Positions 1,013 to 24,645 of a stretch of 64,000 nucleotides of DNA are shown here, piece by piece (position 1 is the stretch's first letter; each line of letters opens with the position of its first letter). The stretch comes from Myxococcota bacterium (GTDB lineage: Bacteria > Myxococcota_A > Polyangia > Nannocystales > Nannocystaceae), in contig JBCCHT010000001.1 of NCBI GenBank assembly GCA_039028615.1, forward strand, positions 640,001-704,000, in the 5' to 3' direction. A program made the position numbers and the translations under genes. Below the pieces are notes generated by a model that saw nothing but the letters and a program-made list of their open reading frames with translations, was not told where the DNA came from and ran no database searches.

Positions 1013-2836
1013 CTACCACCAGAAGGTGGCGCGAACGGAGACGACCTGCTGGTCGGGGATCCGCGTCGGCGCGCCGCGGTTGCCCGCTTCCTGGTTGCCG
1101 CTGGTGGCACCGAAGCCGGAGGGCGGCACGGGAGCGCTGGGCGGCTGCACGCACAGCTGAGAGTCACCCATCGGATCGCACTCGCGCTGGTTGTACAGGT
1201 AGCGCGAGTACTGGATCGACAGCTCCTCGCGCGTGATCCAGTTGGTGCGGAAGATGAGCCGCGGCGAGACCACCGAGAACGACTGCTCCGGGATGCGGGA
1301 GTTGGGCTGCACCCGGTCGTAGCGGGTCGCCACCGCGAGCCAGCGTCGGGCGTCGAAGCGAAGATCACCGCCGTACTTGAACTTGGTGATGCCGTCGATG
1401 TCCGGGTCGTCGCTCGCGATCTTGTTGAACATCGTGTAGAGCTTGAGGCTGAGGTCCATGCCCTCGCCCCACCACTGGTCCCCCTTGCGGATCCGCTGCA
1501 CGCTCTGCTCGGCCTGGGCCATCACGGTGTAGATGTCACCGTTGCCGTTGCTCGAGGTGGTGGGCCCGTTGAGGTAGTTGTCGATGATGCCGAAGGTGAA
1601 CTGACCGGCACCGCGGGAGTGGATGACCTCGATGCTCGGCCCCACCGATTGCGCGTGACGGGCTTGGATCACCGAGAACGCGGCGTAGTAGTAGCCCAGC
1701 CGTCCCCAGTTGATCCGCAGGTCGGGGCCGGCGACGGTCATCGACCCGTCGGGCGGATTCTCGACGAAGTCGGCGTTGGCCTCGGACCCGATGCGGTCTT
1801 CCTCGCGGGCCAGGGCCTGCAGGAAGTGACCCCCCAGGGTGATCTTCCGCTTGTAGTCGAAGCCGATGTGGGCGTGGTGCAAGAAGGTGAAGCGCGCGAG
1901 GTTGAAGACCCGCGGGTCGGGGCGCGTGGCACCGACGCCGTGCTCGAGCGTGATGGTGAAGTCCTTCACCATGATGTCGAGCTTGCCCGCCTCACCCATC
2001 GAGTGAGTCCGGCCGAAGGCGTAGGTATCGAGCTCACCCGCGTCGTAGCGCCCGGCTGCGCCGTAGCGATTGTCGAAGGAGCCGACCTTCCAGCTCAGCT
2101 TCAGGTACTTGCTCGGCAGCTTCGGCTGGATGGTGACGAAGGCCTGCGCGATGCCGAACTGGGCGTTGTTTTCCTTCCACGCCGCGTCGGTGAAGTTGAA
2201 GCCCTGGATCGAGACCGTGCCCTGCGCGACCTGGTTGCCGTAGCCGAGATAGAGCTCCGCCCAGTCCCGCGGGTTGTGAAGGGTGTAGCCGTAGCCGAGG
2301 TACTGGTCGTCGGGCACTACGGGGGCGTGCATGGTGGTGCTGCTCTGCCCCTCCGCGGGCTCGGCTCGCTCACCCAGGCCGATCCGCATGGGCGCCCGCA
2401 AGAAGCCATGAAACAGGAAGCCCCAGTCGCCGCCGCCCGCGTCCGGGCTACCGCCGCGGGACGAGATGATGTTCTGCAGGGCGCCGTCGCGCTTCTTCTT
2501 CTTTTTGCCGGCCGGCCCGGGGAAGACGTTGGGGCGCGAGGTCGGCAGGCCCGAGCCCGCGGTATTGGGCGCAGCCACGGTGGAGAGCGGCTCGCCCCCG
2601 TTGGTGGCCTGGCCAGGCGGGATTTCCGGCTCGGCCGGCGCCTCGGCCTCGGCGGAGCCCTCGGCGTCCGCCGGGGCGAGCTCGACCGAGCCTTCGGCGG
2701 AAGCCTCGGCGGAGGCCTCGGCCGGAGCGCTGACTTCGGTCGCCGGGGCGGCCCCGTCTTCGGGGGTCGCGGGCTCCTCGGCGGAGCCGCCGGTCAACAA
2801 GAGGGCAACGGATACTGCGATGCTGGACATGATCAC
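1013..2836 (-). CDS. Putative outer-membrane beta-barrel protein (possible carbohydrate porin) with N-terminal signal and acidic/Pro-rich linker
   Basis: Signal peptide, long A/E/P linker, aromatic-rich alternating beta-strand segments, C-terminus VSVRATFWW typical of OM barrels; overlaps the GH9 stop codon. Confidence 0.6.
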   Translation of the reverse strand: MIMSSIAVSVALLLTGGSAEEPATPEDGAAPATEVSAPAEASAEASAEGSVELAPADAEGSAEAEAPAEPEIPPGQATNGGEPLSTVAAPNTAGSGLPTSRPNVFPGPAGKKKKKRDGALQNIISSRGGSPDAGGGDWGFLFHGFLRAPMRIGLGERAEPAEGQSSTTMHAPVVPDDQYLGYGYTLHNPRDWAELYLGYGNQVAQGTVSIQGFNFTDAAWKENNAQFGIAQAFVTIQPKLPSKYLKLSWKVGSFDNRYGAAGRYDAGELDTYAFGRTHSMGEAGKLDIMVKDFTITLEHGVGATRPDPRVFNLARFTFLHHAHIGFDYKRKITLGGHFLQALAREEDRIGSEANADFVENPPDGSMTVAGPDLRINWGRLGYYYAAFSVIQARHAQSVGPSIEVIHSRGAGQFTFGIIDNYLNGPTTSSNGNGDIYTVMAQAEQSVQRIRKGDQWWGEGMDLSLKLYTMFNKIASDDPDIDGITKFKYGGDLRFDARRWLAVATRYDRVQPNSRIPEQSFSVVSPRLIFRTNWITREELSIQYSRYLYNQRECDPMGDSQLCVQPPSAPVPPSGFGATSGNQEAGNRGAPTRIPDQQVVSVRATFWW

Positions 2837-5187
2837 CGGGCCTGTTCGTCGAGGAACGCGACGACCCAGAAGAGCGGGGCGTTCCAGTTGATGGTGACTT
2901 CATTGGTCGACCACGACTCGATGTGGTCGACGAAGCATTTTTGAGCGGGACACCCCGGCAGCCCCAACGACTGCGCATAGGGGTCTTCGAGCCGAGAGTT
3001 CGGGCCACCCGAGACGGCCCCCGGCGGGGGCAAGGGATAAGCTTCGTCTTTTTGGTGCGCCCAGAACCGATGGTGCGGGTTCTCGAGCGGGTTGGCGCCG
3101 TAGCCCGTGACATAGGATTGCCACATCGGGTTGCGGCCCAGCAGGTAGTCCATGGCGTCGATGACCCCGTGCAGGTACTGCGCCTCGCCAGTGAGGTCGT
3201 GAGCGAAGCCCATGACCAACGCGCTATTGAGCACGAGCGAGTTGCTGCCCCAAGGCAGGGTCCCGCCCGCGTCGGTCTGCACGGGGACCGGATAACCGGA
3301 GGACGACACGCGGCTGGCGTGGCTCTTGGCTACCTTCACCACCGCGCCCCGAGCCCCGTCGACATCGAGGGTGGTGGTGCCCGGCTTGGCCGTGGCCAAC
3401 GACAGCGTGCCGAGGGCCTGCACCACCTGCCAGTTCATGGGCGCCTGCTGGCCCCCGAGCTCCGGCGTGGGGCCGGGGATGGCCAGGTAGTGCTTCGACT
3501 CCCGCGCGACCTTGGCGTACTCGGCGTCTCCGGTGGTGAGCGCGAGCTCGACCGCGGCCCAGTAGAACTCGTCGCTGACGTCGAGGTCTTCGTAGGGACC
3601 GCCGCCGACGTTGTCGCTGCCGGGGGCGAGCTGATCGGGCGTGGCCTGAGCCGCCGCGAAGGCCCGGCGCGCCGCCTTCTCGCAGCGCGCGGAGAACTCG
3701 GGGTCGATGTCCTTCCACAGGCGCGCCGCCTGAGCGGCCACGGCCGCGAGGTTGAGCGTGGCCGCCGTGCTGGGCTTGTGCAAAAACCGCGGCGCCTTGG
3801 CCTCGTGAGGCGGCAGCGGCATGTCGGACCACTTTTGCTCGTGCAGCTTGTGGAAGGCCATGCCCTCCCACTTCTTGCCCTCGGGCACCTGCATGCCGAG
3901 CAGCATCTCGAGCTCCCAGCGCACTTCGTCGAGCAGGTCGGACACGCCGTTGCCCTGCTCGGGAATGGAGAACTTGCCGTCGGCCACCGCCGAGAGGTCG
4001 CCCTCGAGCTTGGCCGTGCGCTCGTAGTAGTGCAGCAGCGTCCACACCGAGATGCCGCCGTTGACGACGTACTTGCCGTGGTCGCCAGCGTCGTACCAGC
4101 CCCCGGACACATCCATGGTGTAGTCGCACCCCAGCTCGGGCAGACACTCGACCGCCGCGTCGCTCTCGTGCCCCGCCGGCCGCGTCCACTTGGCGTCTCC
4201 GGCGTAGGGCATCTCGATCGCGATGCCACTGCGGTTGTGATAGAAGTACGCCGCTGCGTCGTACTTGAGACGCGCGTAGATCGACGCATCGATGGAGAAG
4301 GCGTCGCTCTCGTGCTCGCCGATCCGCAGCTTGAACCCCTTGCCCGTGGCGTTCACGGACGAGAAGTCGAGGCGGTGCAGCGGGTCGCCCGAGGCCGGGT
4401 CTTCGCCAAACACGGTGGTGGTACCCGTCGCGACGACGCTGCCGCCCTCGTCCACCAGCTCCCACGACGCGGGCGAGGTGTCGGGAGTGCGGTAGATCGC
4501 CCGCTTGGGCTGCCCGGGGTAGTAGCCGATCTGGTTGACCCGGATCGGCGGCGCGAGCATGTAGTCGGGCGGAGGTGGCGGCTCGAACTCGGGGTCGGCC
4601 AGCACGATGTCGTCGATGCAAATCTCGACCGGCCCCTCCCCCGCCAGCGGCCCACCCAAGTGCACGCTGAACTCGGCCTGGAGGTCGTCGTCACCGCGCA
4701 TCGTGAAGTGGCCGGCAAAGCGCTGCGGCTCCGGCTTCAGCTCCAGGGTGCTGGCCCAGTACTCGGTGTAGGGAGGACCCGCCATCCCGACCTTGGGCCG
4801 AATCTGCGCCGGGCGATCGGCGGTGGCCGTCATCTCGACCAGGTACTGGTGCCCCCGGTGTAGTCGCAGCGCACGGTGCCGCAGCTGAAGGTCCCAGGAG
4901 ACCTCGCCCGCCGCGTTCGCCTGCATGCAAAAGGCCCCATCCTGGACCCGGGCCGAGCCTTGGGCCGAGCCCATGACCGAGGACTTCCACGGCGTCGCGC
5001 TGCCGTCGGAGAAGCTCGAGTTGCGGATGAGGTTGTGGTCGCCCTCCACCACCGGAGGCGGGCCGTCATCGATGACCGGCGCCCCGTCCTCGGGGTTCGC
5101 CGAGGCCGAAGCGCTGTCCTTGCGGCTGCACGACAGCGCCAGGAGAGCCAACAACAGGATGCCGCGATCGCGTCGAATGCTCATCAT
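2833..5187 (-). CDS. Glycoside hydrolase family 9 cellulase (CBM4_9 + Ig-like CelD_N + GH9), lipoprotein
   Basis: GGWYDAGDHGKY, RVNQIGY (Ig domain), NPHHR and WSTNEVTINWNA catalytic motifs; N-terminal CBM4-like NLIRNSSF...W domain; lipobox LALSC. Confidence 0.95.
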   Translation of the reverse strand: MMSIRRDRGILLLALLALSCSRKDSASASANPEDGAPVIDDGPPPVVEGDHNLIRNSSFSDGSATPWKSSVMGSAQGSARVQDGAFCMQANAAGEVSWDLQLRHRALRLHRGHQYLVEMTATADRPAQIRPKVGMAGPPYTEYWASTLELKPEPQRFAGHFTMRGDDDLQAEFSVHLGGPLAGEGPVEICIDDIVLADPEFEPPPPPDYMLAPPIRVNQIGYYPGQPKRAIYRTPDTSPASWELVDEGGSVVATGTTTVFGEDPASGDPLHRLDFSSVNATGKGFKLRIGEHESDAFSIDASIYARLKYDAAAYFYHNRSGIAIEMPYAGDAKWTRPAGHESDAAVECLPELGCDYTMDVSGGWYDAGDHGKYVVNGGISVWTLLHYYERTAKLEGDLSAVADGKFSIPEQGNGVSDLLDEVRWELEMLLGMQVPEGKKWEGMAFHKLHEQKWSDMPLPPHEAKAPRFLHKPSTAATLNLAAVAAQAARLWKDIDPEFSARCEKAARRAFAAAQATPDQLAPGSDNVGGGPYEDLDVSDEFYWAAVELALTTGDAEYAKVARESKHYLAIPGPTPELGGQQAPMNWQVVQALGTLSLATAKPGTTTLDVDGARGAVVKVAKSHASRVSSSGYPVPVQTDAGGTLPWGSNSLVLNSALVMGFAHDLTGEAQYLHGVIDAMDYLLGRNPMWQSYVTGYGANPLENPHHRFWAHQKDEAYPLPPPGAVSGGPNSRLEDPYAQSLGLPGCPAQKCFVDHIESWSTNEVTINWNAPLFWVVAFLDEQAR

Positions 5188-5915
5188 TGCTCACACCCGT
5201 AAAAGGAGATGTCGTCGATCCAGATGTCGAAGGTCTTGCCCGAGCCCTCGACCTGAAACTGCAGGCCGTACACCTGCGTGGCGTCGATCGAGCCAGGACG
5301 AGGTGCCCCCCACCCCGACATCTGGCTCAGCTGCTCGAAGGTGAAGACGTACTGCTGCCACTCCTCGGTGAGCTCGATGTCGGCCCCGAAGTCGTTGAAG
5401 CACTCGGTGCAGACGCCCCCCTCGGGAGAGGTGGCCGCGTCGGGGACCTTGAGCCGAATGTTGTTGGCCGAGTCCGCGCCGTGGCGGGCATAAAACGAGA
5501 CGCCCTCGTAGGCCGAAGCATCGTAGGGCCCCTTGGGATCGACGAAATTCAGCCCATATCCGGCGAATACGAGCGATCCACTGACGAGCTGGCCATGGAA
5601 GCGAGCCGCGTACATCGATCCGTTGGCCCCGCCCTCGGCCTGAGCGAAGGTGCCGCCCAGGCGCCCGGCCAGGGGCTCGACCGTCGAGCCCGACTCGTCG
5701 AGGAACGTGTACATGTAGCCACCGCGGCCCTGCTGATCGAGGGTGCGGTGGTCGTTGTCCTCGGCGTCTTCGATCACGGCGCTGCGAGTGCAGCGACCCA
5801 AGTCGAAGGCCCCCACGGCGCCCGCGTCGGGGCCGTTGGTCGCCGTGGGCTCGCACGCGGAGGTCAACCCCGTGGCCGCAGACAACACGAAGATGGAGAT
5901 CGATGGATGCTTCAT
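5184..5915 (-). CDS. CBM11/CIA30-like carbohydrate-binding lipoprotein
   Basis: YDASAYEGVSFYAR, LTEEWQQYVFTFEQL and FDIWIDDISF galactose-binding-like fold motifs; lipobox LTSAC; GAGGA before ATG 5915. Confidence 0.75.
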   Translation of the reverse strand: MKHPSISIFVLSAATGLTSACEPTATNGPDAGAVGAFDLGRCTRSAVIEDAEDNDHRTLDQQGRGGYMYTFLDESGSTVEPLAGRLGGTFAQAEGGANGSMYAARFHGQLVSGSLVFAGYGLNFVDPKGPYDASAYEGVSFYARHGADSANNIRLKVPDAATSPEGGVCTECFNDFGADIELTEEWQQYVFTFEQLSQMSGWGAPRPGSIDATQVYGLQFQVEGSGKTFDIWIDDISFYGCEQ

Positions 5916-5926
5916 GAGTCGATTCC

Positions 5927-6490
5927 TCAGAAGGTCACGCAATAGCCGAACATCGCTTGTTCACCGGGGTCGATGGCCGCGTTGTGCTCCGCCCCGGAAA
6001 AAGAGGCCTCGGTCCCCATTTCGGAGACGAGCGCCGCGTTCCATACTTGATCGAGAGTGCCGGGCAGCGTCAGCGTCACCTCCCAGGTGACGTTGAAGGC
6101 GGAGATGTTGGTGACGAAGACGTCGTCGCACTGCCCCTGGGGGAACATGGACTGGGTGACGACCTCGACCATGAGTTCGTCGTCGCTGAAGGTGTCCACA
6201 CCCTGGGTCTCGCCGCCTTCGCTCGACTCGCCGCCGGTATCGGAGCCCATGTCTCCGCCGGAGCTCGAGTCACCCGGAGGGGGCGGAGGAGGCGGAGGCG
6301 GAGAGTCGTCGAGGCCGTCGTCGAGCCCATCGCCCGTCGAGCTCGTGCCTTCATCCTCTTCCGCCGTCATCCCGGTGGTGACCGGAGGATCCGGCTCGCC
6401 AAAGAGGCCCGCATCGCCGCCCGAGTCGTCACCACAGGCCGTAAACAGGCCGCCGAACACCAGTATCCATGCAGGAAGCGTCTTGTTCAT
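5927..6490 (-). CDS. Lipoprotein with acidic/Pro linker and C-terminal CBM2-like cellulose-binding domain
   Basis: Lipobox LFTAC; C-terminal VTN..WEVTLTLPG...QVWNA...HNAAIDPGE..FGYC matches the CBM2 pattern; GGAGGA SD. Confidence 0.8.
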   Translation of the reverse strand: MNKTLPAWILVFGGLFTACGDDSGGDAGLFGEPDPPVTTGMTAEEDEGTSSTGDGLDDGLDDSPPPPPPPPPGDSSSGGDMGSDTGGESSEGGETQGVDTFSDDELMVEVVTQSMFPQGQCDDVFVTNISAFNVTWEVTLTLPGTLDQVWNAALVSEMGTEASFSGAEHNAAIDPGEQAMFGYCVTF

Positions 6491-6521: not shown

Positions 6522-6537
6522 AGCACGCACCGTGCCA
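6522..6537 (-). promoter_or_regulatory. Sigma54 (-24/-12) promoter of the CBM2-CBM11-GH9-barrel operon
   Basis: Minus strand reads TGGCACGGTGCGTGCT against consensus TGGCACGNNNNTTGCW, with exact GG-N10-GC spacing, about 30 nt upstream of ATG 6490. Confidence 0.7.
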
Positions 6538-6639
6538 GTTCCTATGTGGGAGAACCTGAGCCCTGCCGCGGGTTTCGAGCGAACGAAGATGCCCGAATCG
6601 GAAGGGTTGGTTCCCGAAGGGTCCGAACCGATCACTCCA

Positions 6640-7755
6640 CTACGGAATCGGCATGATCACTTGGCACGGGAAGGTCGCGTCCACGGAGTGATCCCCACCG
6701 TCTTGGAGGGTCGCGCACGCCTCACCCAACAGCTCGAGGGTCGACTCCTCGGGCACGTGCCAGTCCGTGCCGCAGTCGATTTCCACGCCGTCCAGCAACA
6801 CCCGGCCCTGGCACGCGGCGTCGATGTCCACGATGCCATCGATGGCGAACTCGCAGCTGACGAAGCCGTTGACGATCTGATCGAAGTCCTCGATCAAGTC
6901 CTGGGCGTTGAGAGCCTGGTAGTAAGGAGCGGGGTCGGGATCGTTGGGAGCCTTGCCCACCCCGACGTTGGCCAGCTCTTGGAGGTGCATGGCCGAGACC
7001 TCTTCACCCACGCTGACCACGAAGGTCTTGATGCCCGCCTCGTAGGCGTCGAGCACTGCGGTCACCGACAGCGGTTGCCCCTCTTGTGGGTCGGGCACGG
7101 CACAGGTATCGGGCTCGCCATCGGTGGCGAGGAGGATGGCTCGCGCCGTGTCTTCCTCGGCCGCCAACGAGGCCGCCACCGCGGCAACGGCCTCGCCCGT
7201 CGGAGTGTCGCCGTCGGGCAGGGGCATCGAGTACGCGGCGTTCATGGCATCCCGATTGCCGAAATCGGGGGCCACCTCGTCCAGCATCGGGCAGGTTCCG
7301 CCGAACATGCCGTTGTTGCTGGTGTACAGCGCCATCCCGAAGCGGACCTCGTCTTCGAGCTGCGTGACCACCCCGTTGGTGGGGTCGAACATCGCGTCGG
7401 AGACCGCCTGCCAGCGAGAGATTCCGCCAAAGTCGTAGCCCATGCTGCCGGAGCGATCGACGAGCAACACAATCGTCGGAATCACGGGCTCGATGCTGGC
7501 GTTGACGTCGGCGCAGCCGCTCCCGCCGTCGTCGGCCATGCCGAGGTCGGGCGTGTCGGTATCGTTGGATACCCCCGTGCCTCCGCTGCCGGCCGTGCCT
7601 CCGCTGCCGGCCGACATCCCGTTCGTGATGCCGTCGCCGTTGCTCGAGTCATTGAAGCCATGCGCTCCATCGCCGACCGTGCACCCCGCCACCGTGCAAC
7701 AAAGGCCGGCGGTGGTGAGCACCGTGGCCACCCCACTCCATCCATTCAACATCAT
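6640..7755 (-). CDS. vWA (MIDAS) domain lipoprotein, CglB-like myxobacterial surface protein
   Basis: LLVDRSGSM (DxSxS), TPTG, ILLATDGEP, Cys-rich C-terminus; lipobox VAGC plus acidic linker; start approximate. Confidence 0.8.
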   Translation of the reverse strand: MMLNGWSGVATVLTTAGLCCTVAGCTVGDGAHGFNDSSNGDGITNGMSAGSGGTAGSGGTGVSNDTDTPDLGMADDGGSGCADVNASIEPVIPTIVLLVDRSGSMGYDFGGISRWQAVSDAMFDPTNGVVTQLEDEVRFGMALYTSNNGMFGGTCPMLDEVAPDFGNRDAMNAAYSMPLPDGDTPTGEAVAAVAASLAAEEDTARAILLATDGEPDTCAVPDPQEGQPLSVTAVLDAYEAGIKTFVVSVGEEVSAMHLQELANVGVGKAPNDPDPAPYYQALNAQDLIEDFDQIVNGFVSCEFAIDGIVDIDAACQGRVLLDGVEIDCGTDWHVPEESTLELLGEACATLQDGGDHSVDATFPCQVIMPIP

Positions 7756-7926
7756 CCTGTCGGACACGCTAGCGCCTCGAAGTCCGCCTGACGAGACTGT
7801 CCAATTCGTTCCCGCAATGCGGATCGGTCTGTGCCTCGATGGCACTGCACTTTCCGATGTGAGGCGTACAAACCCGGTTGTCTTCAGCGAAACCAAACTG
7901 GACCGCCGCTTGCTACACAGACCTCT

Positions 7927-8430
7927 ATGGTCGTGGTGCTACTGGGATTGGCGAGGGTGGACATCCGTTCGGTCGGACGCGCATTGAGTCGGACGTTGGA
8001 TGCCACCGTTTTGGACGGGGACCGTTTGCGGTACTCGGCCGCACCGTCTTCAGACGAGGCGGGCTGGCTGCGAGCTTTCGGCCGCACGCTCCGGGAACCG
8101 CACCCGCGTCCGCACGTGGTGGTGACCTGTACGGCGTTGTCGCCCCGAGAGCGGCGAGAGCTGCGAATGTGTGACCGTCGTCAGATGCTCGTGATCCTTC
8201 GCGAGCCCTCGGATACGGCCGAGCTGACGCAGCGGCATGATCCAGAACACACCATCGTGGCGAACGCGACGGGGGACGTCGAAGAGCAGGCCGCACGGAT
8301 CTACGCCCGCCTCTTGCCGCGGCTCGAGGAAGCCAGAACCCGAAAAATGCCGGAGACCGGCCAACAAACCGCTCTGGGGGGGATTTCAGAAAGGGAAGCC
8401 GAAGACGTATGCTCGGGCCCCTGTGGCTGA
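7927..8430 (+). CDS. Gluconokinase/shikimate-kinase-like fold protein with degenerate P-loop
   Basis: VVVLLG...SVGRALSRTLDATVLDGDRL, WLRAFG and VVVTCTALS..ERRELR parallel GntK motifs, but Walker A GxGKS is absent. Confidence 0.5.
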   Translation: MVVVLLGLARVDIRSVGRALSRTLDATVLDGDRLRYSAAPSSDEAGWLRAFGRTLREPHPRPHVVVTCTALSPRERRELRMCDRRQMLVILREPSDTAELTQRHDPEHTIVANATGDVEEQAARIYARLLPRLEEARTRKMPETGQQTALGGISEREAEDVCSGPCG

Positions 8431-8433
8431 CGC

Positions 8434-9579
8434 GTGATCAAACTCGTCGCAGCGATGGCGGCACGGCTCTTTGCTCCCGAGGCCGAGCCGCCCAGCGCGG
8501 AGGCGAGCACGACGGCGACCCCCACTGAGGTGGTGGACGCCGGGGTAGCCGCGACGGCGGAAGTAGAGCAGCCGCCGATCCAGCTGCCACGCACGAAGGT
8601 CATCGTCGGCTTCACCGCCGACGACCCTTCGGTGACCCGCACCGATCTGGAACAGGCGCTCGCCGCCCAGATGGCGGACACCGGCTTGCAACATCGAGTC
8701 GCGACGCTCGCGGGCGATAGCGACCACGGACTTCGCGTCGCGTGGGCCTCGACCTTCGAGATGCAACGCGACGTGCTCGCGGTGTTCTGGATTGAGGGCA
8801 CCAGCGAGGCGCGCAAGCTCTATATGTACGATCCGGATCGCGGGAAGACCTGGATGCGTACGCTGGAGACCTCGTCGGACCCCGACGAGCTCATCGTCTC
8901 CTTGGGCACCATCGTGCGCGGCATCAGCCTGGCCACGGTCGCGGGTGCGCCTTCCGGCATGAAGGAAGTCGAGCCGCCCAAGCCCGTGCCCAAAGAAAAA
9001 GAGCCGCCGCCTCCACCCGTCGACGACGAACCCGAGCCCGAGCCACCGCCCGCACCGAAGACGACGTGGAGCGTCGAACTCGCGTACGAGGGCGGCAACC
9101 TCTCGAGCACCGCACCGTGGCTCAGCGCGGGCAGCATCGGCCTCGACGTCGAGCTTCCGTTTCAGCTCGTGAGTCGAGTCGCAGCCGCGGTGTACGGGCC
9201 CCTGCCCTTGTCCGGTCCGCCGCAAACCACCGTGTGGCGAGTGCCGATCAACGTGAGCGTCGGCTATCGATTCCGAAAGGGTGCGGCATTCCGCCCCATG
9301 GTCGATGCGTCACTCGTGGTGGAGCCGATGTGGTGGCAAGCCGACACCACCCCCGATGTCACCGCCTTTTCCGGGAGCACCGTCCGTATTGCGGTCGCCC
9401 CCGGCGCCGGCTTCCGCGCACGGCTTTGGAAGGGCCTGGGACTGCTCGTACACGCCCGTGCGGATATGCGCGTTCGCAACGCCGACCTCGTGGTATCTGA
9501 CCGTGAACGTCGTGTTTCACGATTGTCTCCTCACGCCGTCGCCGCCACCGCACGCGCGGGCCTGTATTATTCGTTCTAA
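8434..9579 (+). CDS. Exported protein with Pro-rich linker and C-terminal beta-barrel-like domain
   Basis: N-terminal alpha/beta region, PKPVPKEKEPPPPP linker, C-terminal alternating strands ending ARAGLYYSF; immediately upstream of the ECF sigma gene. Confidence 0.55.
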   Translation: MIKLVAAMAARLFAPEAEPPSAEASTTATPTEVVDAGVAATAEVEQPPIQLPRTKVIVGFTADDPSVTRTDLEQALAAQMADTGLQHRVATLAGDSDHGLRVAWASTFEMQRDVLAVFWIEGTSEARKLYMYDPDRGKTWMRTLETSSDPDELIVSLGTIVRGISLATVAGAPSGMKEVEPPKPVPKEKEPPPPPVDDEPEPEPPPAPKTTWSVELAYEGGNLSSTAPWLSAGSIGLDVELPFQLVSRVAAAVYGPLPLSGPPQTTVWRVPINVSVGYRFRKGAAFRPMVDASLVVEPMWWQADTTPDVTAFSGSTVRIAVAPGAGFRARLWKGLGLLVHARADMRVRNADLVVSDRERRVSRLSPHAVAATARAGLYYSF

Positions 9580-9686
9580 GACGGGCCGGGCAGGAATTCG
9601 TTTGGGTTTTTTCATCAACTCGGCGGGGTTTCATCCCCCTTGGCTTTCGAGTGAACGCGCTCGCAATCGCCTATCGGGAGTCGTCG

Positions 9687-10274
9687 GTGACTGACTCCCG
9701 CCCCAGCCCTCACCAGGACGATCTGGCCCTGGCGGCGGCCGCAGGAAGCGGTGACTCGGCTGCGGCCGAACGCTTCGTACGGCGGGCGATTCCCATCGTG
9801 CGACGAGTCTCACGTGCAATCATTGCCGACCGCACCGAGTCCGAGGATGCCCTACAGCTCGCGCTCATCGAGGTGCTCAGCGCCGCGCGAACGTACCGAG
9901 GCACCGGAGCCTTCGACCACTGGGTTCGCAAGGTCGCGAGTCGGGCCGTGATTCGACACGCTCGCAAGACTCGAAGCTCTCGCATTCACAGTATCGAGGA
10001 ACAAGCGGACACCCGGCACACCTCCATGTCGACCACGATGTTGGAGTCCCTGCCGCGCTCGCTCGAGCACTACCTCGATGAACTTCCCGAAAACCAGCGC
10101 GTGGCCATGCTGCTTCGCCACGCGTTGGGACACACCATCGCAGAGATCGCCGAGCTTACCGACGCACCGGTCCCCACCGTCTTGTCTCGGATCAAGAAGG
10201 CACGACAAGAACTGCGCCGATTGATCCAGCGAGACGTCAACCTGGGCGTCAAACCAGTGGCGAGGACGTCATGA
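9687..10274 (+). CDS. ECF RNA polymerase sigma factor
   Basis: Region 2 EDALQLALIEV..YRGTGAFDHWVRKVA; region 4 LDELPENQRVAMLLRHALGHTIAEIAELTDAPVPTVLSRIKKAR. Confidence 0.92.
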   Translation: MTDSRPSPHQDDLALAAAAGSGDSAAAERFVRRAIPIVRRVSRAIIADRTESEDALQLALIEVLSAARTYRGTGAFDHWVRKVASRAVIRHARKTRSSRIHSIEEQADTRHTSMSTTMLESLPRSLEHYLDELPENQRVAMLLRHALGHTIAEIAELTDAPVPTVLSRIKKARQELRRLIQRDVNLGVKPVARTS

Positions 10275-16456: not shown

Positions 16457-18123
16457 AGCGGCGTACCCTCGGCCTGTACTCCACGACGGCGCTGACCCTC
16501 GCCCTCACGCTGCCCGCCTGTCGCGACGACGAAGGGGAGCAGATGGACGACGGCAGCGGTGGCATCGACACCCTGGGCGGAGGCGAAGACGGCGGAGGAG
16601 GTGCCGCCGCGCGTTGTGCCACCGATCGCATGGGTCCCCCCATGGTCCGTCGCCTCACCCGCGGAGAGCTCGAGGCCACGCTCCGCGACGTCTTCCCGGA
16701 GATCGATGGCAGCTGGTCCGGGGTCTCGCTCGGGCCCGATCCCGTCACCCACCAGGGCTTCAGCAACGACGCCGAAGCGCTCGCGGTGGGGCTGCAGACC
16801 GCGGGCGACATCCTCGACACCGCGCAGGACGTCGCCACCCTGGTCACCGCCGCCGACACCTTGGCGACCGTCTTGCCCTGCGCGGCGACGGCCCCCGACC
16901 GCGGCTGCGCTACCGAGTTCGTCGAGCAACGCGGGGCCGCGCTGTTCCGTCGACCGCTCGACGAAGAAGAGATCGCCCGCTACGTCGAGTACTACGACTC
17001 GGTCGCCGAGCGCTCCGACTTCGCCACTGGCTTGCGCTGGACCACCGTCGCGCTGATCCAGTCTCCGCTCACCGTCTACCGCTCGGAGCTCGGCTCGAAC
17101 GAGGGCGGCGTCTACCGCCTCGATCCCTACGAGATCGCCAGCGCCCTGGCCTACGACTTCTCCGGGCTCCCCCCCACCGACGACCTCATCGCACGAGCCG
17201 TCGCCGGCGAGTTCGACGACCCCGAGGCGCGCATCGAGGTCGCCCGGGAGCTGCTCGCCACCGAGGCCGGCCACGCCGTGCTCGAGCGATTCTTCCGCGA
17301 GTGGTCGGGCTACGGGCAAGTCGCCGGGGCCGTCCGCGACGATCCGGACTTCGAGGGCGTTCGCGACGCGATGGACGAGGAAACGCGGCGCTTCATCGAG
17401 GCGGTCGTCTATGAAGACGAAGCCGACGTCTACGGCCTGCTCACCGCCAACTACTCCGTCGTCAACGCCGACCTGGCCAGCTACTACGGCTACGGGGCAC
17501 CAGGCGGAGACTTCGCCCGCGTGGAGCGGCCCGCGCAGTGGGGCATCGGCTTGCTCGCTCAGGGCTCGGTGCTCGCCGCCAACGCCAACAGCGGGGCCTC
17601 CTCGCCGACCCAACGCGGCCTGCTCGTCTACGAGAAGCTGCTGTGCGAGTCGCCGCCGCCTCCCCCCGCCGACGTGCCCGCGCTGCCGGCCGATGTCGAT
17701 GGCGCCCAGACCACCCGTCAGCGCTACGAAGAAGTGCACATGGCCGACCCCGCCTGCCAGGGCTGCCACCAGTTCTTCGATCCCATCGGGTTCTCCTTCG
17801 AACACTTCGACCAAGCCGGCCGCTACCGCACGCAAGAGAACGGCTTGGAGATCGACGCCAGCGGCCTGCTCGTCGTCGATCCGGCGGCGGACCCCGTCGC
17901 CTTCGACGGTCTCTCCGAGCTGGCCACGCTCGCCGCCGAGACCCCCGCGGTCACCGACTGCGTCAGCGGCCTGATGATCGGCTACGTGTTCGGCGGGGCG
18001 GGTGGTGAGGTCTGCGTCGCCGAGTCGGCCCGCGACGCTCTCCAAGCGGGCGAGATCGGAATGCTCGAGTACGTCGCCCAGCTCGCCGGAGCACCGCACT
18101 TCACCGAGCGCGAAGCACCCTAG
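16453..18123 (+). CDS. DUF1587/1595/1592/1588 domain lipoprotein with c-type heme motif
   Basis: RRLTRGE..TLRD, LFRRPL, LDPYEIASALAY, SSPTQRG, CQGCHQFFDPIGFSFEHFD..GRYR; ATGA overlap with the DUF1552 gene; lipobox LPAC. Confidence 0.9.
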   Translation: MKRRTLGLYSTTALTLALTLPACRDDEGEQMDDGSGGIDTLGGGEDGGGGAAARCATDRMGPPMVRRLTRGELEATLRDVFPEIDGSWSGVSLGPDPVTHQGFSNDAEALAVGLQTAGDILDTAQDVATLVTAADTLATVLPCAATAPDRGCATEFVEQRGAALFRRPLDEEEIARYVEYYDSVAERSDFATGLRWTTVALIQSPLTVYRSELGSNEGGVYRLDPYEIASALAYDFSGLPPTDDLIARAVAGEFDDPEARIEVARELLATEAGHAVLERFFREWSGYGQVAGAVRDDPDFEGVRDAMDEETRRFIEAVVYEDEADVYGLLTANYSVVNADLASYYGYGAPGGDFARVERPAQWGIGLLAQGSVLAANANSGASSPTQRGLLVYEKLLCESPPPPPADVPALPADVDGAQTTRQRYEEVHMADPACQGCHQFFDPIGFSFEHFDQAGRYRTQENGLEIDASGLLVVDPAADPVAFDGLSELATLAAETPAVTDCVSGLMIGYVFGGAGGEVCVAESARDALQAGEIGMLEYVAQLAGAPHFTEREAP

Positions 18124-18202: not shown

Positions 18203-18883
18203 TCAGCAGCCGTTCATGCACGAGCACGCCATGCAGTCGAACGACGAAGGACTCCCCGCCGGACCCGAGCACATCAGGCTGCACGCTTGGGGACCGCAGG
18301 TGATCGAGGTCGCCAGGCAGGCATTGATCCCCGAGCACGTGATCTCGCAGCCGCTGTCGCCGCAGGTGATCGACGAGTTGTTGCAGCTGTTGTCGCCCGT
18401 GCACGAGACCACGCAGGGCCAGCCGTCGGGGCACACCACGCCGCCGTTACACTCGTTCGAGCCGCACGCGATGGTGCAGGTGCCTCCGTCGCATCCCCCC
18501 GTGCACTCGGCCGGGCACTCGCCCATCCCCGGCGGCACGGGGTCGCACGTGGGCGGCGGCGGGCCGTCGTCCGTGCCCGGCTCACCGGTGCTGCCATCGT
18601 CTGTGCCCGGCGGCGGGCCGTCGTCCGTGCCCATGCCGCCGTCGCTCGAGTCCCCGGTGGCGCTCGATCCGGGCGTTGTGGAGTTGGTGGTGGCCGGCGG
18701 CTCGGACGTATCGAGGTCGTCGGCACCATCGCCGGTCGAAGTGCTGGACTCGCTCGGCGAGGCGACCCCCGTCGTTTCGGTGTCGGGGTCTCCAAAGAAA
18801 CCCGCATCGGTGGTGCTTCCCCCGCCCCCACCGCAACCGAGCAACACGCTCCCCACTACGCCAAGCCAAATCAACCGTTGCAC
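18203..18883 (-). CDS. Cys-rich lipoprotein of unknown function
   Basis: GTG start with GGAAGGA SD, lipobox LLGC, acidic linker, C-terminal repeated CxIxCxGxxxC units. Confidence 0.7.
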   Translation of the reverse strand: MQRLIWLGVVGSVLLGCGGGGGSTTDAGFFGDPDTETTGVASPSESSTSTGDGADDLDTSEPPATTNSTTPGSSATGDSSDGGMGTDDGPPPGTDDGSTGEPGTDDGPPPPTCDPVPPGMGECPAECTGGCDGGTCTIACGSNECNGGVVCPDGWPCVVSCTGDNSCNNSSITCGDSGCEITCSGINACLATSITCGPQACSLMCSGPAGSPSSFDCMACSCMNGC

Positions 18884-19063
18884 GCTCCGTTCCTTCCCGG
18901 CGCCGACACTCCACTGCGGCTCCGAAACGGTCTTTCTGCAAGGAATAGACCACGCGCCGAGGTCACGAGAAGGCAACAAAAAGCGGCGAGCGGAGCCATC
19001 GATTCCGGCAGGGCGGAACCCGGCGTTCCCTCGGGGTCGTGAATCGATCAGGCTCGCTTCGGC

Positions 19064-20830: not shown

Positions 20831-21787
20831 TCAGCCGGTGCTGCCCATCCCCGTGTCGCCGGAGTCGCCAGCATCGCCCCCGCCCGGCTCGCCACCGAGG
20901 AAGGTCAGCTCATCGACATAGATGTCGAAGTTCGCGCCCGGCCCGGCCTGCCAGTGGATCTCGGTCAGCGCCCCCGAGTTGAAGCTCGCGGCGACGCCCC
21001 AGCCCTCCTGCGCCAGCTGCCCCCACATGATCTCGTGGTAGGTCCAGCTATCGGAGAGCGAGACGGAGGTACCGAAGTTGTCGTGGCACATACCGGCCGC
21101 GGGATCGCAGTCGCCTCCCAGGTCCGTGGGGACCGTGGCCAGCGTGGCGATGTGCATGCGGGCCGTGCCCGTGCCGCGAGCCCAGAACCCGATGCCGTCG
21201 AAGTTGCTGGCGTCGTAGGCACAGCTTCCGGTGAAGTCGTTGTTGAGGCTGACGGCCATGGCCGCGCCCCACTCGGTGAAGCCGCTGCCCCAGGTCCGCG
21301 CCGCGTAGGCCGTGCCTTCGGCTCCGCCCTCCGAGGGGATGAAGGGATCGCCGCCCTCTTGCGTGCCGCCGGCCGAGCCGTCGTTGTAGATGAACCAGAA
21401 GCCGCGACGGCCGTCCACCATGGGGATGGTGCCGTCGGGCTCCATCGCCTCCGCGTCGATCTCGAGACCGTCGATGAAGGGGTCGCTGCCCCCGACGGGC
21501 ACGTTCGCACAGGCGGCCGGCGGTTGAGGCGGGGGCCCGTCGTCGCTGTCCGGGTTGGGTGGCGTGGTGGTGTTGGGCGGCATCGTGGTGTTGGAGGTGT
21601 CGCCTTGACCCGAACCTCCGGTGCCCTGATCCGACGATCCGTCGTCGCCGTCCGTCGCGGGCGTGGGGTTGGAGTCGATGCCCCCGCCCCCTCCCGACAA
21701 CCCGACACCGCTGTCGCCTTCCTCCCCCGGGCAACCCAAGAGCAGGAGGCTCGCTCCCAGTACTGCGCTCAGTTTCGACAATGACAT
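20831..21787 (-). CDS. CBM11-like carbohydrate-binding lipoprotein (paralog of 5184-5915)
   Basis: Lipobox LLLGC, acidic/Pro linker, DGRRGFWFIYND, YDASNFDGIGFWARG, LAQEGWG, FDIYVDELTF. Confidence 0.75.
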   Translation of the reverse strand: MSLSKLSAVLGASLLLLGCPGEEGDSGVGLSGGGGGIDSNPTPATDGDDGSSDQGTGGSGQGDTSNTTMPPNTTTPPNPDSDDGPPPQPPAACANVPVGGSDPFIDGLEIDAEAMEPDGTIPMVDGRRGFWFIYNDGSAGGTQEGGDPFIPSEGGAEGTAYAARTWGSGFTEWGAAMAVSLNNDFTGSCAYDASNFDGIGFWARGTGTARMHIATLATVPTDLGGDCDPAAGMCHDNFGTSVSLSDSWTYHEIMWGQLAQEGWGVAASFNSGALTEIHWQAGPGANFDIYVDELTFLGGEPGGGDAGDSGDTGMGSTG

Positions 21788-21801: not shown

Positions 21802-24645
21802 TCATGGACTCATCAACTCCTGAGGCCAGACCACCTCGCGGACGGGACCCAACTGGGCTCCGCCGTGGTTCTTGGCCTCGTAAAGGGCTTCGTCGGCCGC
21901 CCCAACCAATCGCTCGGCGATCGTCTTGAGGAGGTCCGGCGTAATCGGTTCGACACTCGGATTCGAAGAGGCGGGGCGCAGCAAGGCGGCCGCACCCACG
22001 CTGCAGCGCAGGGGCCCCTCGACGCCTTCGATCACCTCGCGGCGTGCGTGCCCGAGGATTCGCCGGGCCACACTTCGCGCGCCTTCGTGGTCGCTGTCGG
22101 GCAGGATCAACGCAAACTCGTCCCCGCCGTAGCGGGCGATCACGTCGTGGTCTCGGGTTGCTCGCCGCAGGACTCGACCCACCGCCACCAGGGCCCGGTC
22201 TCCCGCCAGGTGCCCCCCCGAGTCGTTGATCCGCTTCATGTCGTCCATGTCCACCATCAGCACACCCACCGGGCGTCGACTGGCGAACGCGGCCTCGATC
22301 TCGCGGGGCAACCACTCGTCGAAGAAGCGCCGGGCATGGACCTCGGTGAGCGGGTCCTGGGCGGCCATTTGGTAGAGCCGCGCGTTGTGGATCGCCGCGG
22401 TGGCCTGGTTGGCGAAGGTCCCGAGCAGTTCCAGGTCGTGCCACGAGACCCCGCTGCGCTCCACGTAGACCACCCCCGCCGCTTGCTTGCCCGCGACCAG
22501 GGGCACGGCCACGCCTTCTTCCATGCGACCGGTACGGCCCGCCGCGAACGCGTCGCGGATCGAGTCGAGCACGGACGCGGGCAGGGTCTCGATCGCGGTC
22601 CGGTCCTCGAATCGACCCGAGCGCGCGAGCACGGCCAGCGGTGGCGTGCCCTTCGTGCCCGCAATGGTGGGTATCTCGATGGAGGGCGCCCGATCGCCGC
22701 CGGGCGTCAGGGCGATGAATGCATGCTCGCTGCCGAGCAAGTTGGAAAGCTGCCCCAGGATGTCCCCGTACAGCTCGCTCAGCGGCCGACAGCGGACCGA
22801 CATCTGGCCGAGCGAGGCCATGGACTCGGACACCAGCATGCGCCGCTGGCCCTCTTGCAGCGCCTTGTAGGCCCGCTCGAGCTGCTCGTTGCGCTCCTCG
22901 AGGTCGCGCAGTAGCTGCTCCCGCTCGCGGTTCTTGTCGAGCACCTCCTGGACCAGCAGCGCCCCTTTGAGCGCGGCGCTGATCTGGTCGCGGAGCGCCT
23001 CGTAGATGACCCCCTCGCGCGGGCCGAACTCGAACATCGCCAGGCCCAGCTGCTCATCGCCGAAAAACAGGTTCTGCACCACGAAGCAGCGCGGCTGTAC
23101 GCCCAAGACTCCGGGCGGGGCGAGTTTTTTCGTTTCGAAGCGCGGCCGCCCCTGCACCCGCAGCGAAGGTCGCTTGGCATCGAGCGCGAGCACCATCTCC
23201 GCCTGCGCCGGGCCGTCGACGTACAGTGACAGGTAGCAGCTACGAATGCCCAAGCGGGGGAACTGCTCCGCCACTGCCTCGACCAGCGAGACCACGTCGA
23301 AGGTGTTGATGAGGGCGGCGATGGTCTGACCCAGGCTCCGCGCCCAGGCCTGGACCTGGAGTCGCTGGTGGGCCTGGGCGTGCTCGACGAGTTCCGCGAT
23401 GGCGATCCGGGCCTCCTCGCAGAGGTCTTCGACCCGCAAGCGATCGCTCTGGGCAGCACCGATGCACGACAGCGTCTCGCGGCGCAGGATCGAGATCACG
23501 TCCTGGAGACTCGAACCGTCCGTCCGCACACGCAGGGCATGGGACACGACCTCGCGTACGGTCCGGGTGAACTGGCCGCGGTGGCCTCCGCCGAGCTCAC
23601 TGGTCAGCGAGTCGAGCAATCGCGGCGCCCAGCCGTCGCCCGCGCTGCGCATCGGCGTGACCAGAGCGTGCTGCATTTCCTCGAGCGCCGCATCGCGACG
23701 GGCAGCCAGAGCCTCCGCAAAGCCCGTGTCCGAGGCCTTGCGACCGAGGTTCGCATTGCCGTTGTTGCCGTGACGCAGGCCCGACGAGCGGCGCTTGACC
23801 AGCTCGGTCGCCAACACGACCCGCCCCGAGGTCCGGTCGCCTCTCAGGCTGGCCAACAGCGACAGCGCGGCCCGCTTGCCCTGCTCGTAGAGCGGCTGCC
23901 GGACGGTGGTCAGCGGGATCTCGCAGAAGCGCGACTCCTCGATGTCGTTGAAGCCGACGACCGCAATCTCCTCCGGCACCGCAATCCCCCGCGCGAGCAA
24001 GGCGTCGAGCACCCCGATGGCCATGAGATCGTCGGCCACCGCGATCGCATCCGGCTTGGCTCCGCCATCGAGGAGCTCGGCCACCGCCGCGGCCCCTGAA
24101 GCCCGCGTGAAGTCCCCGCGCACCACCAGGGTGGGATCGATGGCCAGCCCCAGCCGCCCTACCGCGTCGAGATACGCCCGGTAGCGACGCTCGGCCTCCG
24201 CATTCACCACCGGGCCGCGCACGAACGCCACCCGACGCCGGCCGCAGTCGTGCACGAGGTGCCGCATCGCCTCCCGCATGCCGCCCTCGTTGTCGACCAG
24301 CACGTTGAACGCATCCGGGAGCTCGACCGCGACGCTGCAGATCGGCATCGGCCGGTAGCGCTCGAGGAACTCCCCCAGGGCCTTGGTCCCGACCGCGTTG
24401 GCGAGCGCCCCCGTCATCACGATCAGCCCATCGACGCTGTCCGGGCCCACCAGATCGAGCAGGACGTTGCGCCCCGACGAGGCCGGCAACGGCGATCGCA
24501 GCACCCCGGCCGCGAAGCAGCGCAGGCCTGCGCCCTGCTCTCGTGCGGCCGCGGCCGCGCCCCGCAGGACCGAGCTCTGGTACGTCGCATCCAAGGCGTC
24601 GGTCACCAGGCCGAGCACGTGGTGCTGTCTCGAAACGCCAGACAT
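21802..24645 (-). CDS. Diguanylate cyclase with N-terminal LacI-type sugar-binding domain, GAF and GGDEF
   Basis: VDNEGGMREAMRHL, GDFTRASG, DDLMAIG, VPEEIAVVGFND, LTTVRQP (Peripla_BP_3, no HTH); DPLT, MVDMDDMKRINDSGGHLAGD, RDHD I-site, RYGGDEF; start approximate (ORF open to 24789). Confidence 0.88.
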   Translation of the reverse strand: MSGVSRQHHVLGLVTDALDATYQSSVLRGAAAAAREQGAGLRCFAAGVLRSPLPASSGRNVLLDLVGPDSVDGLIVMTGALANAVGTKALGEFLERYRPMPICSVAVELPDAFNVLVDNEGGMREAMRHLVHDCGRRRVAFVRGPVVNAEAERRYRAYLDAVGRLGLAIDPTLVVRGDFTRASGAAAVAELLDGGAKPDAIAVADDLMAIGVLDALLARGIAVPEEIAVVGFNDIEESRFCEIPLTTVRQPLYEQGKRAALSLLASLRGDRTSGRVVLATELVKRRSSGLRHGNNGNANLGRKASDTGFAEALAARRDAALEEMQHALVTPMRSAGDGWAPRLLDSLTSELGGGHRGQFTRTVREVVSHALRVRTDGSSLQDVISILRRETLSCIGAAQSDRLRVEDLCEEARIAIAELVEHAQAHQRLQVQAWARSLGQTIAALINTFDVVSLVEAVAEQFPRLGIRSCYLSLYVDGPAQAEMVLALDAKRPSLRVQGRPRFETKKLAPPGVLGVQPRCFVVQNLFFGDEQLGLAMFEFGPREGVIYEALRDQISAALKGALLVQEVLDKNREREQLLRDLEERNEQLERAYKALQEGQRRMLVSESMASLGQMSVRCRPLSELYGDILGQLSNLLGSEHAFIALTPGGDRAPSIEIPTIAGTKGTPPLAVLARSGRFEDRTAIETLPASVLDSIRDAFAAGRTGRMEEGVAVPLVAGKQAAGVVYVERSGVSWHDLELLGTFANQATAAIHNARLYQMAAQDPLTEVHARRFFDEWLPREIEAAFASRRPVGVLMVDMDDMKRINDSGGHLAGDRALVAVGRVLRRATRDHDVIARYGGDEFALILPDSDHEGARSVARRILGHARREVIEGVEGPLRCSVGAAALLRPASSNPSVEPITPDLLKTIAERLVGAADEALYEAKNHGGAQLGPVREVVWPQELMSP

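Follow-up and report, generated by a model that had tools for sequence, protein, structure and literature searches.

A locus of Myxococcota centred on a predicted maltoporin-fold porin and linked to genes for beta-glucan utilisation

How does a myxobacterium that encodes a lipoprotein cellulase bring the cut sugars across its outer membrane when no SusC/SusD-type uptake system is at hand? This question is raised by a stretch of 64,000 nucleotides (the window) from a Myxococcota bacterium of the family Nannocystaceae (GenBank assembly GCA_039028615.1, contig JBCCHT010000001.1, positions 640,001 to 704,000; G000:C1:640001-704000 in our labels). A sequence-only reading had proposed that positions 1013-24645 encode one SusC/D-independent apparatus for cellulose, made up of a cellulase of glycoside hydrolase (GH) family 9, lipoproteins with carbohydrate-binding modules (CBM), an expansin, a Cip1-like protein, a novel beta-barrel, a cassette of an extracytoplasmic function (ECF) sigma factor and its anti-sigma factor, a DUF1552/DUF1592 pair and a LacI-sensor diguanylate cyclase. 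Every one of these genes is present where it had been placed, and the annotations hold against Pfam, NCBIfam and PDB (Table 1). With a probability of about three in four, we conclude that the locus serves the utilisation of cello-oligosaccharides or beta-glucan and that its barrel is a porin through which the cut sugars likely enter by facilitated diffusion, a TonB-dependent SusC/D system not being used. The host genome (G000) comprises 12.27 Mb in 94 contigs and is 96.7% complete; its genes were called by a codon-position rule.

Neither Pfam nor NCBIfam has a model that matches the barrel protein, and Pfam, LamB PF02264 included, matched none of 30 paralogs. When we modelled the protein with AlphaFold2 from an alignment of 109 sequences, we obtained 18 long strands (predicted local distance difference test score, pLDDT, 90.0; predicted template modelling score 0.90), that is, the 18-stranded antiparallel barrel by which LamB/ScrY porins are defined in part of PMC3509688. 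Among 48,161 PDB representatives, the model was closest to maltoporin 1mpr (Z 24.4, root-mean-square deviation (rmsd) 3.9, 359 aligned residues) and to ScrY 1a0s (Z 22.9, rmsd 3.5 over about 360 residues), the next fold reaching only Z 17.6, and Foldseek likewise returned ScrY and LamB as its top matches. Of the earlier description as a novel beta-barrel, the barrel and its lack of a family model stand, but the predicted fold is that of maltoporin and ScrY, whose structural match rules out a novel one. In the ESM Atlas, the only matches were Myxococcota porin clusters without names and BBP2 look-alikes.

The resemblance extends to short motifs. LamB Y6/R8 in the first strand corresponds to porin F43/R45 (family consensus Y), Y41/E43 in the second strand to the invariant W90/E92, R109-D111-D116-Y118 in loop 3 to R161-D163-D168-Y170 at identical spacing, and the C-terminal W420-W421 to W504-W505 (numbering of the 505-residue model). 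R109, D111 and D116 also have a role in loop 3 of LamB. Of the slide aromatics Y6, Y41, W74, F227, W358 and W420 and of Y118, equivalents at the level of motifs were mapped for Y6, Y41, W420 and Y118 and are conserved in the porin family; excerpts of PMC3509688 and PMC3558487 describe these four as slide or constriction residues of LamB. The first three motifs occur in the same order in LamB, in 83 of 109 family members and in 12 of 97 more distant representatives, and among 2388 host proteins of the same size the pattern is found once, in the porin itself. The protein also has an acidic N-terminal extension of about 100 residues. Going by its model, we take the barrel for a distantly related sugar porin of LamB fold that falls outside the Pfam family, and the earlier idea that oligosaccharides are imported through a barrel other than a TonB-dependent transporter (TBDT) is most plausibly right. 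A complex prediction of the porin with a CBM11-like lipoprotein scored 0.00 while its controls were not folded, and we count it neither way.

The genes around the porin indicate what it may carry. From a scan of GTDB genomes we took the best 79 of 331 porin stretches, 44 of the 79 being full-length, and used 2136 same-size windows of the host genome as controls. Neighbours were counted by tblastn because gene calling by GC content did not work for some loci of lower GC, L044, L052 and L054 yielding no genes at all. A beta-glucan GH was present in 61 of the 79 porin loci and in 21 of the 2136 controls (1%), which bears out the proposal of a SusC/D-independent beta-glucan locus, and 68 loci contained a GH or CBM. 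CBM11-like genes (55 loci), GH9 (45) and GH94 (34) were the most frequent neighbours, followed by GH5 (17, with a second GH5 type in 3), GH1 (13), GH48 (12), GH6 (6) and CBM3 (3). The one porin-linked GH94 that was tested scored 1257 bits as a cellobiose phosphorylase and 437 as a chitobiose phosphorylase, and therefore points to beta-1,4-glucan. Family-5 ATP-binding cassette (ABC) importers, major facilitator superfamily (MFS) transporters and Entner-Doudoroff genes also recur. The linkage of porin and GH is seen in every major branch of a quickly built porin tree, which serves only to show this spread, and the gene order varies between lineages.

Whole genomes give a similar picture. In the host's family the porin occurs in 14 of 73 genomes, among them all 12 with a close CbhA-type GH9 (E < 1e-130) and 13 of the 15 that pass a looser GH9 cut-off of E 1e-40; one genome, G066, has porins without a GH9 match, and these adjoin GH13 and GH31. 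In a second family of 91 genomes we found the porin in 24, GH9 in 21 and both in 20, and in a phylum sample of 401 genomes the porin is present in at least 22, a floor value. The nearest relatives of the porin come from Paraliomyxa miuraensis and from metagenome-assembled genomes of Nannocystaceae.

The conserved core of the locus is an operon (1013-6490) of a CBM2 lipoprotein, a CBM11-fold lipoprotein, a CbhA-type GH9 and the porin. Its genes are closely packed or overlap by 4 bases, the porin start overlapping the GH9 stop. With its CBM4-Ig-GH9 architecture and intact catalytic Asp and Glu motifs (DAGD and NEVTINWN), the cellulase has the features of the CbhA/CelK type and matches 1ut9 at E 3e-171; its score of 751 bits lies below the CelK equivalog cut-off of 1700. 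The CBM11-like lipoprotein of the core (type A) was modelled at pLDDT 95.5 and is most similar to CtCBM11 (1v0a; Z 17.4, rmsd 2.7 over 163 residues, Foldseek rank 1), followed by the CIA30-type 7zkq at Z 15.9. Pfam CBM_11 matched neither of the two CBM11-like proteins in the window, PDB sequence searches with the CBM11-like family gave nothing useful, and weak CBM_11 matches appeared in relatives only (P0168; E 0.0024, below cut-off), so that the earlier CBM11-like call passes for this protein at the level of fold and fails at that of sequence. Type A genes are found in 53 of the 79 loci, 11 of which are without GH9. The CBM2 gene occurs in 6 loci, and alignment to 1exg reveals a degenerate binding face with His where the CBM2a of C. 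fimi has Trp. Homologs of the adjacent von Willebrand factor A (vWA) lipoprotein gene were found in 23 loci.

In the host's clade the operon is predicted to be under sigma-54 control. A site that agrees with the general -24/-12 consensus of sigma-54 promoters, missed by the earlier reading, lies upstream of the CBM2 gene in the window and in all six close loci (L001-L006), the whole host genome containing 44 sites of this type. A GGAA-N7-TTCC palindrome accompanies the promoter in the window and in L001-L006, and the pair occurs once in the 12.3-Mb genome, the pattern having been derived post hoc. The locus reaches about 6.3 kb beyond the left end of the window, into a part that the earlier reading could not see. 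Encoded there (to 633723) are a sigma-54 activator (C1:637369-638706), GH1, a lipoprotein of family GH5 and a third lipoprotein of CBM11-like type; L001 and L006 share this order, except that the host has an oxidase and an M57 peptidase inserted. The sequence features of a sigma-54 operon, namely the -24/-12 motif, the upstream palindrome and the linked AAA+ activator, are all present. No N-terminal sensor domain is recognisable in the activator and its orthologs. Of 8 further porin loci that we checked, none showed a promoter of this kind. The palindrome is also seen, without a matching sigma-54 motif, at 19015-19029 of the window, upstream of a Cys-rich lipoprotein gene, and between activator and ABC genes at L002:12743, L003:12732 and L005:12810.

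Gene content, predicted folds, linkage, co-occurrence and the recurrent promoter motif are results of the analysis; transport, specificity, localisation, regulation and growth on cellulose we infer. According to our model, GH9 and GH5, both anchored in the membrane, would act at the envelope on amorphous cellulose or on soluble beta-1,4-glucan and cut it, and CBM11-fold lipoproteins would hold or concentrate the glucan. The porin would let cellodextrins through the outer membrane, a family-5 ABC transporter or an MFS protein would move them over the inner membrane, and GH1 and a cellobiose-phosphorylase-type GH94 would complete their breakdown in the cytoplasm. In the host's clade, the adjacent sigma-54 activator likely turns the operon on via the conserved promoter and palindrome.

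Several observations weigh against this model. Eleven of the 79 loci, including 3 of the 44 full-length ones, contain neither GH nor CBM, and 4 of the 24 porin-positive genomes of the second family have no GH9 match. A profile search detected no porin homolog in 19 genomes of one genus (11-16 Mb, nearly all closed), and G495, which belongs to this genus, has two CbhA-type GH9s without porin or CBM11-like neighbours; the porin is therefore not required for a myxobacterial GH9 set. Porin and LamB share only 11-14% identity and no sequence-profile link between them was detectable (PDB sequence search empty, hhalign probabilities 0.6% and 1.2%), the LamB motifs were compared by eye with a pattern built post hoc, and the eyelet pattern is lacking in most distant paralogs (13 of 97 representatives). 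As part of PMC7797564 reports, wild-type LamB restricts cellobiose; the fold alone therefore gives no specificity, which rests on gene context. Related genomes are not independent of each other, and our locus and genome sets overlap. In the host, GH94, GH6, the SBP5 transporter and one further copy each of GH5 and GH9 lie away from the locus. It is doubtful that crystalline cellulose is attacked, because the host genome yielded no match for GH48 or for the lytic polysaccharide monooxygenase family LPMO10, the latter searched with a positive control. Finally, Nannocystaceae are reported in sections of PMC12093494 to be poor in carbohydrate-active enzymes (CAZymes).

The last two points are also what speaks for a different reading, in which the lipoproteins face inward and the porin admits soluble beta-glucan fragments, be they of mixed-linkage glucan, xyloglucan or cellodextrins, that other organisms set free or that stem from prey. 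GH9 and GH5 would trim these in the periplasm, making the bacterium a secondary consumer, not a primary degrader of cellulose. The small cellulase set, the degenerate CBM2 and the PDB entries of CtCBM11, which are complexes with mixed-linkage glucan, are consistent with such scavenging. Lipoboxes, which had been offered as a signature of the system, gave no testable surface signal: a crude rule, which misses some window genes through start-site errors, flags 2040 of 8757 host genes (about 23%), making them the default of this genome. The acidic or Pro-rich stalks ascribed to most members are indeed found on several, but GH9 and the first CBM11-like protein have short linkers and 501 of the 8757 genes encode stalked proteins. 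The long stalks that do occur would nevertheless fit a reach to the cell surface, and GH48, GH6 and CBM3, present in many homologous loci at the counts given above, are typical of insoluble-cellulose systems. We therefore regard inward scavenging as a possible reading that deserves attention, though one we would bet against.

The opposite extension, in which the complete 1013-24645 set, with expansin, Cip1-like protein and DUF1552/1592 pair, forms a single co-regulated surface apparatus for insoluble cellulose with a cyclic di-GMP output, is in our view unlikely. In its favour, on contig C171 of G051, a genome of another genus, a GH1-GH5-GH9-porin cluster has the ECF cassette, a Cip1-like gene, DUF1552, DUF1592 and an expansin (60%) no more than about 35 kb away, Cip1-like and DUF1552 genes adjoin in G046 (with GH12), G051 and G066, and longer DUF1592 proteins, 2 of 8 matches, have CBM2 and cytochrome c as fusion partners. 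Excerpts of PMC10916295 add that Teredinibacter proteins fuse a Cip1-like X122 domain with a CxxCH-containing X132 domain and that loss of Cbp2D/E lowers cellulose use in Cellvibrio; the same excerpts, however, ascribe to X122 domains neither activity nor plant-wall binding. Moreover, the DUF pair and Cip1-like gene of G051 are only distant paralogs (23-35%), the 24-kb interval comprises five or more transcription units with genes for a glutathione S-transferase (GST) and a short-chain dehydrogenase/reductase (SDR) in between (found in 0 and 1 of the 79 porin loci, respectively), GH48 and LPMO10 gave no match, as noted, and expansin, DUF1552 and DUF1592 lie within 10 kb of the porin in none of the 79 loci, the genome profiles of expansin and DUF1552 being uncoupled from it. 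That the barrel exports a self-made glucan, as AlgE or BcsC would, while the diguanylate cyclase governs production of this polymer and the hydrolases edit it, we reject as highly improbable. AlgE is among the fold matches (Z 16.1) and a GGDEF protein is linked, but maltoporin and ScrY score 7-8 Z units above AlgE, no glycosyltransferase or synthase was found among the recurrent neighbour clusters scanned (85 representatives), and the neighbours, including GH94, GH1, ABC binding proteins, Entner-Doudoroff enzymes, araA and galK, are catabolic or importing.

The preferred reading, a beta-glucan locus with an importing porin, invites comparison with known systems. With LamB/ScrY and the maltose ABC regulon of E. 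coli (malEFGK-lamB-malM) it shares the predicted 18-strand fold, the N-terminal, second-strand, loop 3 and WW motifs and the linkage to oligosaccharide hydrolases and ABC importers. In contrast to LamB, the porin has no hidden Markov model link, bears the acidic N-terminal extension, stands with lipoprotein cellulases and CBM11-fold lipoproteins in a beta-glucan context, belongs to a multi-copy family that is often tandem in substrate-specific loci, and is predicted to be under sigma-54 control in the host's clade. Like the polysaccharide utilisation loci (PULs) of Bacteroidetes, the locus has an outer-membrane transporter surrounded by CAZymes, lipoprotein hydrolases among them, by non-catalytic lipoproteins for binding and by regulators in the form of sugar sensors and an ECF/anti-sigma cassette, and it has paralogous loci for different glycans. 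Unlike them, it lacks an adjacent susC/susD pair and uses a porin-fold channel. As had been noted for the window, no TBDT was found on contig C1, 13 being encoded elsewhere in the genome and none near the beta-glucan genes that were located, and SusD gave 0 matches in the genome with a positive control run. The binding lipoprotein differs from SusD in being a CBM11-like beta-sandwich, and its partnership with the porin is putative. With C. thermocellum CbhA/CelK and the cellulosome, finally, the locus has in common the domain order and catalytic motifs of GH9 and, in many homologous loci, GH48, GH5 and cellobiose phosphorylase as partners, but its enzymes are anchored by a lipobox instead of a dockerin in a Gram-negative envelope with a dedicated porin. 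The reported lack of cohesin holds for the whole genome (0 matches, with a positive control) and that of dockerins for the locus enzymes; dockerin-profile matches were confined to one 188-residue frame on C61, which we disregard because it lies away from the locus and cohesin is missing.

The porin family is considerably wider than this locus. It forms 847 clusters at 50% identity, has no Pfam or NCBIfam model, gives up to 13 matches per genome, and is also found in cultured Paraliomyxa, Plesiocystis, Enhygromyxa, Polyangium and Minicystis. We picked 17 loci of distant paralogs blind to their neighbours and scanned the unlabelled proteins within three genes (90 proteins, including 16 from the GH9 regions of G495, with 12 further G495 proteins left out). 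Thirteen of the 17 have a Pfam GH as neighbour, namely GH3/GH67, GH43, GH5/GH130, GH44, GH54 with araA, GH28/GH88, GH13 or GH31/alpha-1,3-glucanase, and the substrate types thus represented are xylan, mannan, arabinan, pectin and alpha-glucan. In two others, BNR-repeat proteins, probably GH74-like, are accompanied by galT/galK or an FGGY kinase; a sugar ABC transporter is the sole such neighbour in another, and L114 shows nothing clear. CBM11-like genes are present in 10 of the 17 loci and two adjacent porin genes in 13; these tandem porins (L106-L119) are of two diverged types and may form heteromeric channels, and two such loci have a c-type cytochrome gene directly upstream. The terminal motifs are mostly kept in distant paralogs, while the second strand and loop 3 differ by subfamily. 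Taken together, the distant paralogs look like a PUL-like repertoire centred on porins, and the host locus belongs with them to a larger set of loci in Myxococcota that serve glycans and are centred on porins. Whether Myxococcota possess a PUL class of their own, with single or tandem LamB-fold porins each for one glycan (cellulose, xylan, mannan, xyloglucan, arabinan, pectin or alpha-glucan) and CBM11-fold lipoproteins in a SusD-like capture role, we consider evenly balanced; if they do, the porin would be a marker for such loci and for predicting the diet of uncultured myxobacteria.

Two further arrangements concern members of this family. At L120:14042-15733, a LamB gene recognised by Pfam lies two genes from a porin of the new family in a GH13/ABC cluster of starch type. 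In a Polyangiaceae clade (L023, L025, L030, L031, L035, L046, L055, L058, L070, L071, L075 and L078), the porin follows a constant UvrD-ChaN-GATase-MsrP-PepSY-ChaC block, often with a vWA gene after it.

The working principle of sugar porin, ABC importer and hydrolases is known as the LamB paradigm, whereas the porin family, its lipoprotein partners, the tandem arrangement and the substrate-wise expansion appear to be new. We found no description of the porin or of porin-centred glycan loci in myxobacteria in the open-licence PMC and bioRxiv literature, a scope outside which subscription papers on Sorangium fall. The available parts of PMC12735889 mention only generic dbCAN PULs, and those of a recent survey of myxobacterial CAZymes (PMC12093494) do not mention porins or lipoproteins. 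The porin is a concrete candidate for the uptake of polysaccharide breakdown products by myxobacteria and makes this outer-membrane step testable. As a family it marks substrate-coherent glycan loci, would widen the range of the LamB fold to include cellodextrins and further plant glycans, and suggests both a sugar-harvesting design distinct from the known one of Bacteroidetes and, in a family considered poor in CAZymes, a use of beta-glucan that has gone unrecognised. For engineering, it might also supply a natural channel for cellodextrins, to which wild-type LamB is restrictive.

Table 1. Features of the locus within the window (positions count from the first letter of the window).
Feature	Position	Strand	Basis or remark
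Outer-membrane porin, predicted 18-strand maltoporin/ScrY (LamB) fold, locus core	1013..2836	-	AlphaFold2, structure search, LamB motifs
Lipoprotein cellulase CBM4-Ig-GH9, CbhA/CelK type, core	2833..5187	-	Pfam, PDB match, catalytic motifs
CBM11-fold lipoprotein, type A, core; most constant porin neighbour	5184..5915	-	Model and structure match
CBM2 lipoprotein with acidic/Pro stalk, first operon gene in close relatives	5927..6490	-	PF00553 30.1 bits, over cut-off
Predicted sigma-54-type -24/-12 promoter of core operon	6522..6537	-	Upstream of CBM2 gene
GGAA-N7-TTCC palindrome, candidate activator binding site	6600..6614	.	About 70-80 bp upstream of promoter
vWA-domain lipoprotein, frequent porin neighbour	6640..7767	-	Pfam VWA; weak CglB-like NF033757 far below cut-off
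Small open reading frame (ORF) and putative outer-membrane protein of ECF cassette, accessory	7927..9579	+	No family match
ECF sigma factor and likely anti-sigma factor, recurrent accessory in Nannocystaceae	9651..11608	+	Pfam/NCBIfam
Lipoprotein, family of 13 members in host genome, weakly linked	11646..12848	+	No family match; 4/79 loci
EXLX1-type expansin lipoprotein, occasional accessory	12856..13803	-	NF041144 206.6 bits (cut-off 100); PDB expansins
Cip1-like (X122-like) lipoprotein, accessory	13837..14781	-	PF21340 over cut-off; 3zyp (E 1.8e-9), 8q2a, 8q28
DUF1552 and DUF1592-family CxxCH lipoprotein pair	15095..18123	+	Pfam (DUF1552; DUF1587/88/92/95); CQGCH motif
Cys-rich lipoprotein	18203..18979	-	Translation; 2/79 loci; adjoins LacI sensor in G046
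Second CBM11-like lipoprotein (stalked), downstream of LacI sensor	20831..21787	-	Sequence similarity only
LacI-type sugar sensor-GAF-GGDEF diguanylate cyclase, likely cytoplasmic, recurrent accessory	21802..24645	-	Pfam/NCBIfam

Beyond the core, three accessories recur: the ECF cassette, the cyclase with the LacI sensor and the Cip1-like gene. The ECF sigma call is clear, the anti-sigma call weak (NF052375 at E 0.0011, tetratricopeptide repeats, one hydrophobic stretch); the two genes occur in 7 and 8 of the 79 porin loci versus 1.3% and 0.4% of control windows, and homologs of the cassette, including its small ORF and outer-membrane protein, lie beside the locus in G046, G003, G051, G053 and G054. 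The LacI sensor was found in 5 of the 73 host-family genomes, all porin-positive, and in 3 of the 4 besides the host it is on the porin contig within about 11 kb. Its GGDEF and RxxD motifs are intact, it has no strong membrane segment, and the output domain varies between loci, being GGDEF or SpoIIE. The neighbouring second CBM11-like protein is tied to the type A family by 36% identity over 158 residues and has no model of its own. The Cip1-like assignment is upheld by its Pfam and PDB matches (Table 1); each of its 4 other close orthologs comes from a genome with the porin, which lies within 11 kb in 2 cases, while 1 ortholog is linked to the ECF cassette and 1 to DUF1552/1592 and GH12, whereas 4 of 6 distant matches are in porin-negative genomes.

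The expansin and the DUF1552/1592 pair are plausible but optional passengers that do not track the porin. Expansin genes occur in 40 of the 73 host-family genomes, 7 of 14 porin-positive and 33 of 59 porin-negative ones, and in G051, which has the closest homolog, the gene lies about 14 kb from the locus. Close DUF1552 homologs are present in 20 of the 73 genomes (7 porin-positive, 13 porin-negative), 0 of the 19 outside the host being on a porin contig; the gene pairs with the Cip1-like gene, which it adjoins in three genomes as described above, rather than with the porin. Of the linkage that had been expected around barrel homologs, GH/CBM and LacI-sensor genes recur, but DUF1552 does not. 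A precedent for a Cip1-like domain together with a CxxCH module exists in cellulolytic gammaproteobacteria, as parts of PMC10916295 and PMC6004670 describe: Cellvibrio Cbp2D/E and Teredinibacter TERTU_2913/3803 (X122-X183-X132) join a Cip1-like domain to a DUF1587-type CxxCH module, which here are encoded by neighbouring genes as separate lipoproteins without CBM, X183 cytochrome or a detectable LPMO10. We infer that X132 is the DUF1592 family from a legend in PMC10916295 and from the matches with CBM2/cytochrome c fusions. The host genome contains 21 DUF1552/DUF1592 gene pairs, mostly without obvious carbohydrate neighbours, with CxxCH in 20 of the DUF1592 proteins, and this sequence pattern suggests that the family is likely a large uncharacterised one of haem lipoproteins with partner proteins.

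A second porin paralog of the host (G000:C60:3232-18255, L101) has as neighbours a family-5 ABC importer, a HupE/UreJ-like gene and four lipoproteins, two of them CBM11-like and two of polysaccharide-deacetylase (CE4-like) type. The cluster resembles one in G051:C237 and possibly serves an acetylated glycan or chitin. In the remainder of the window, a 1718-residue protein at 24914-30070 (+) with metallophosphoesterase, NA-iREase, NACHT, pentapeptide and WD40 regions resembles NACHT/NLR-like conflict or defence proteins. It is followed at 30074-33415 by lower-GC, poorly scoring ORFs, a possible mobile patch, in which the ORF at 32456-33415 has an N-terminus that we take to resemble Rpn/YhgA-type transposases. 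The context to the right of the locus is of housekeeping type, with Fmt-like and PriA-like genes at 33551-39001 and, at 55784-57907 (-), an ORF that presumably encodes a biosynthetic arginine decarboxylase.

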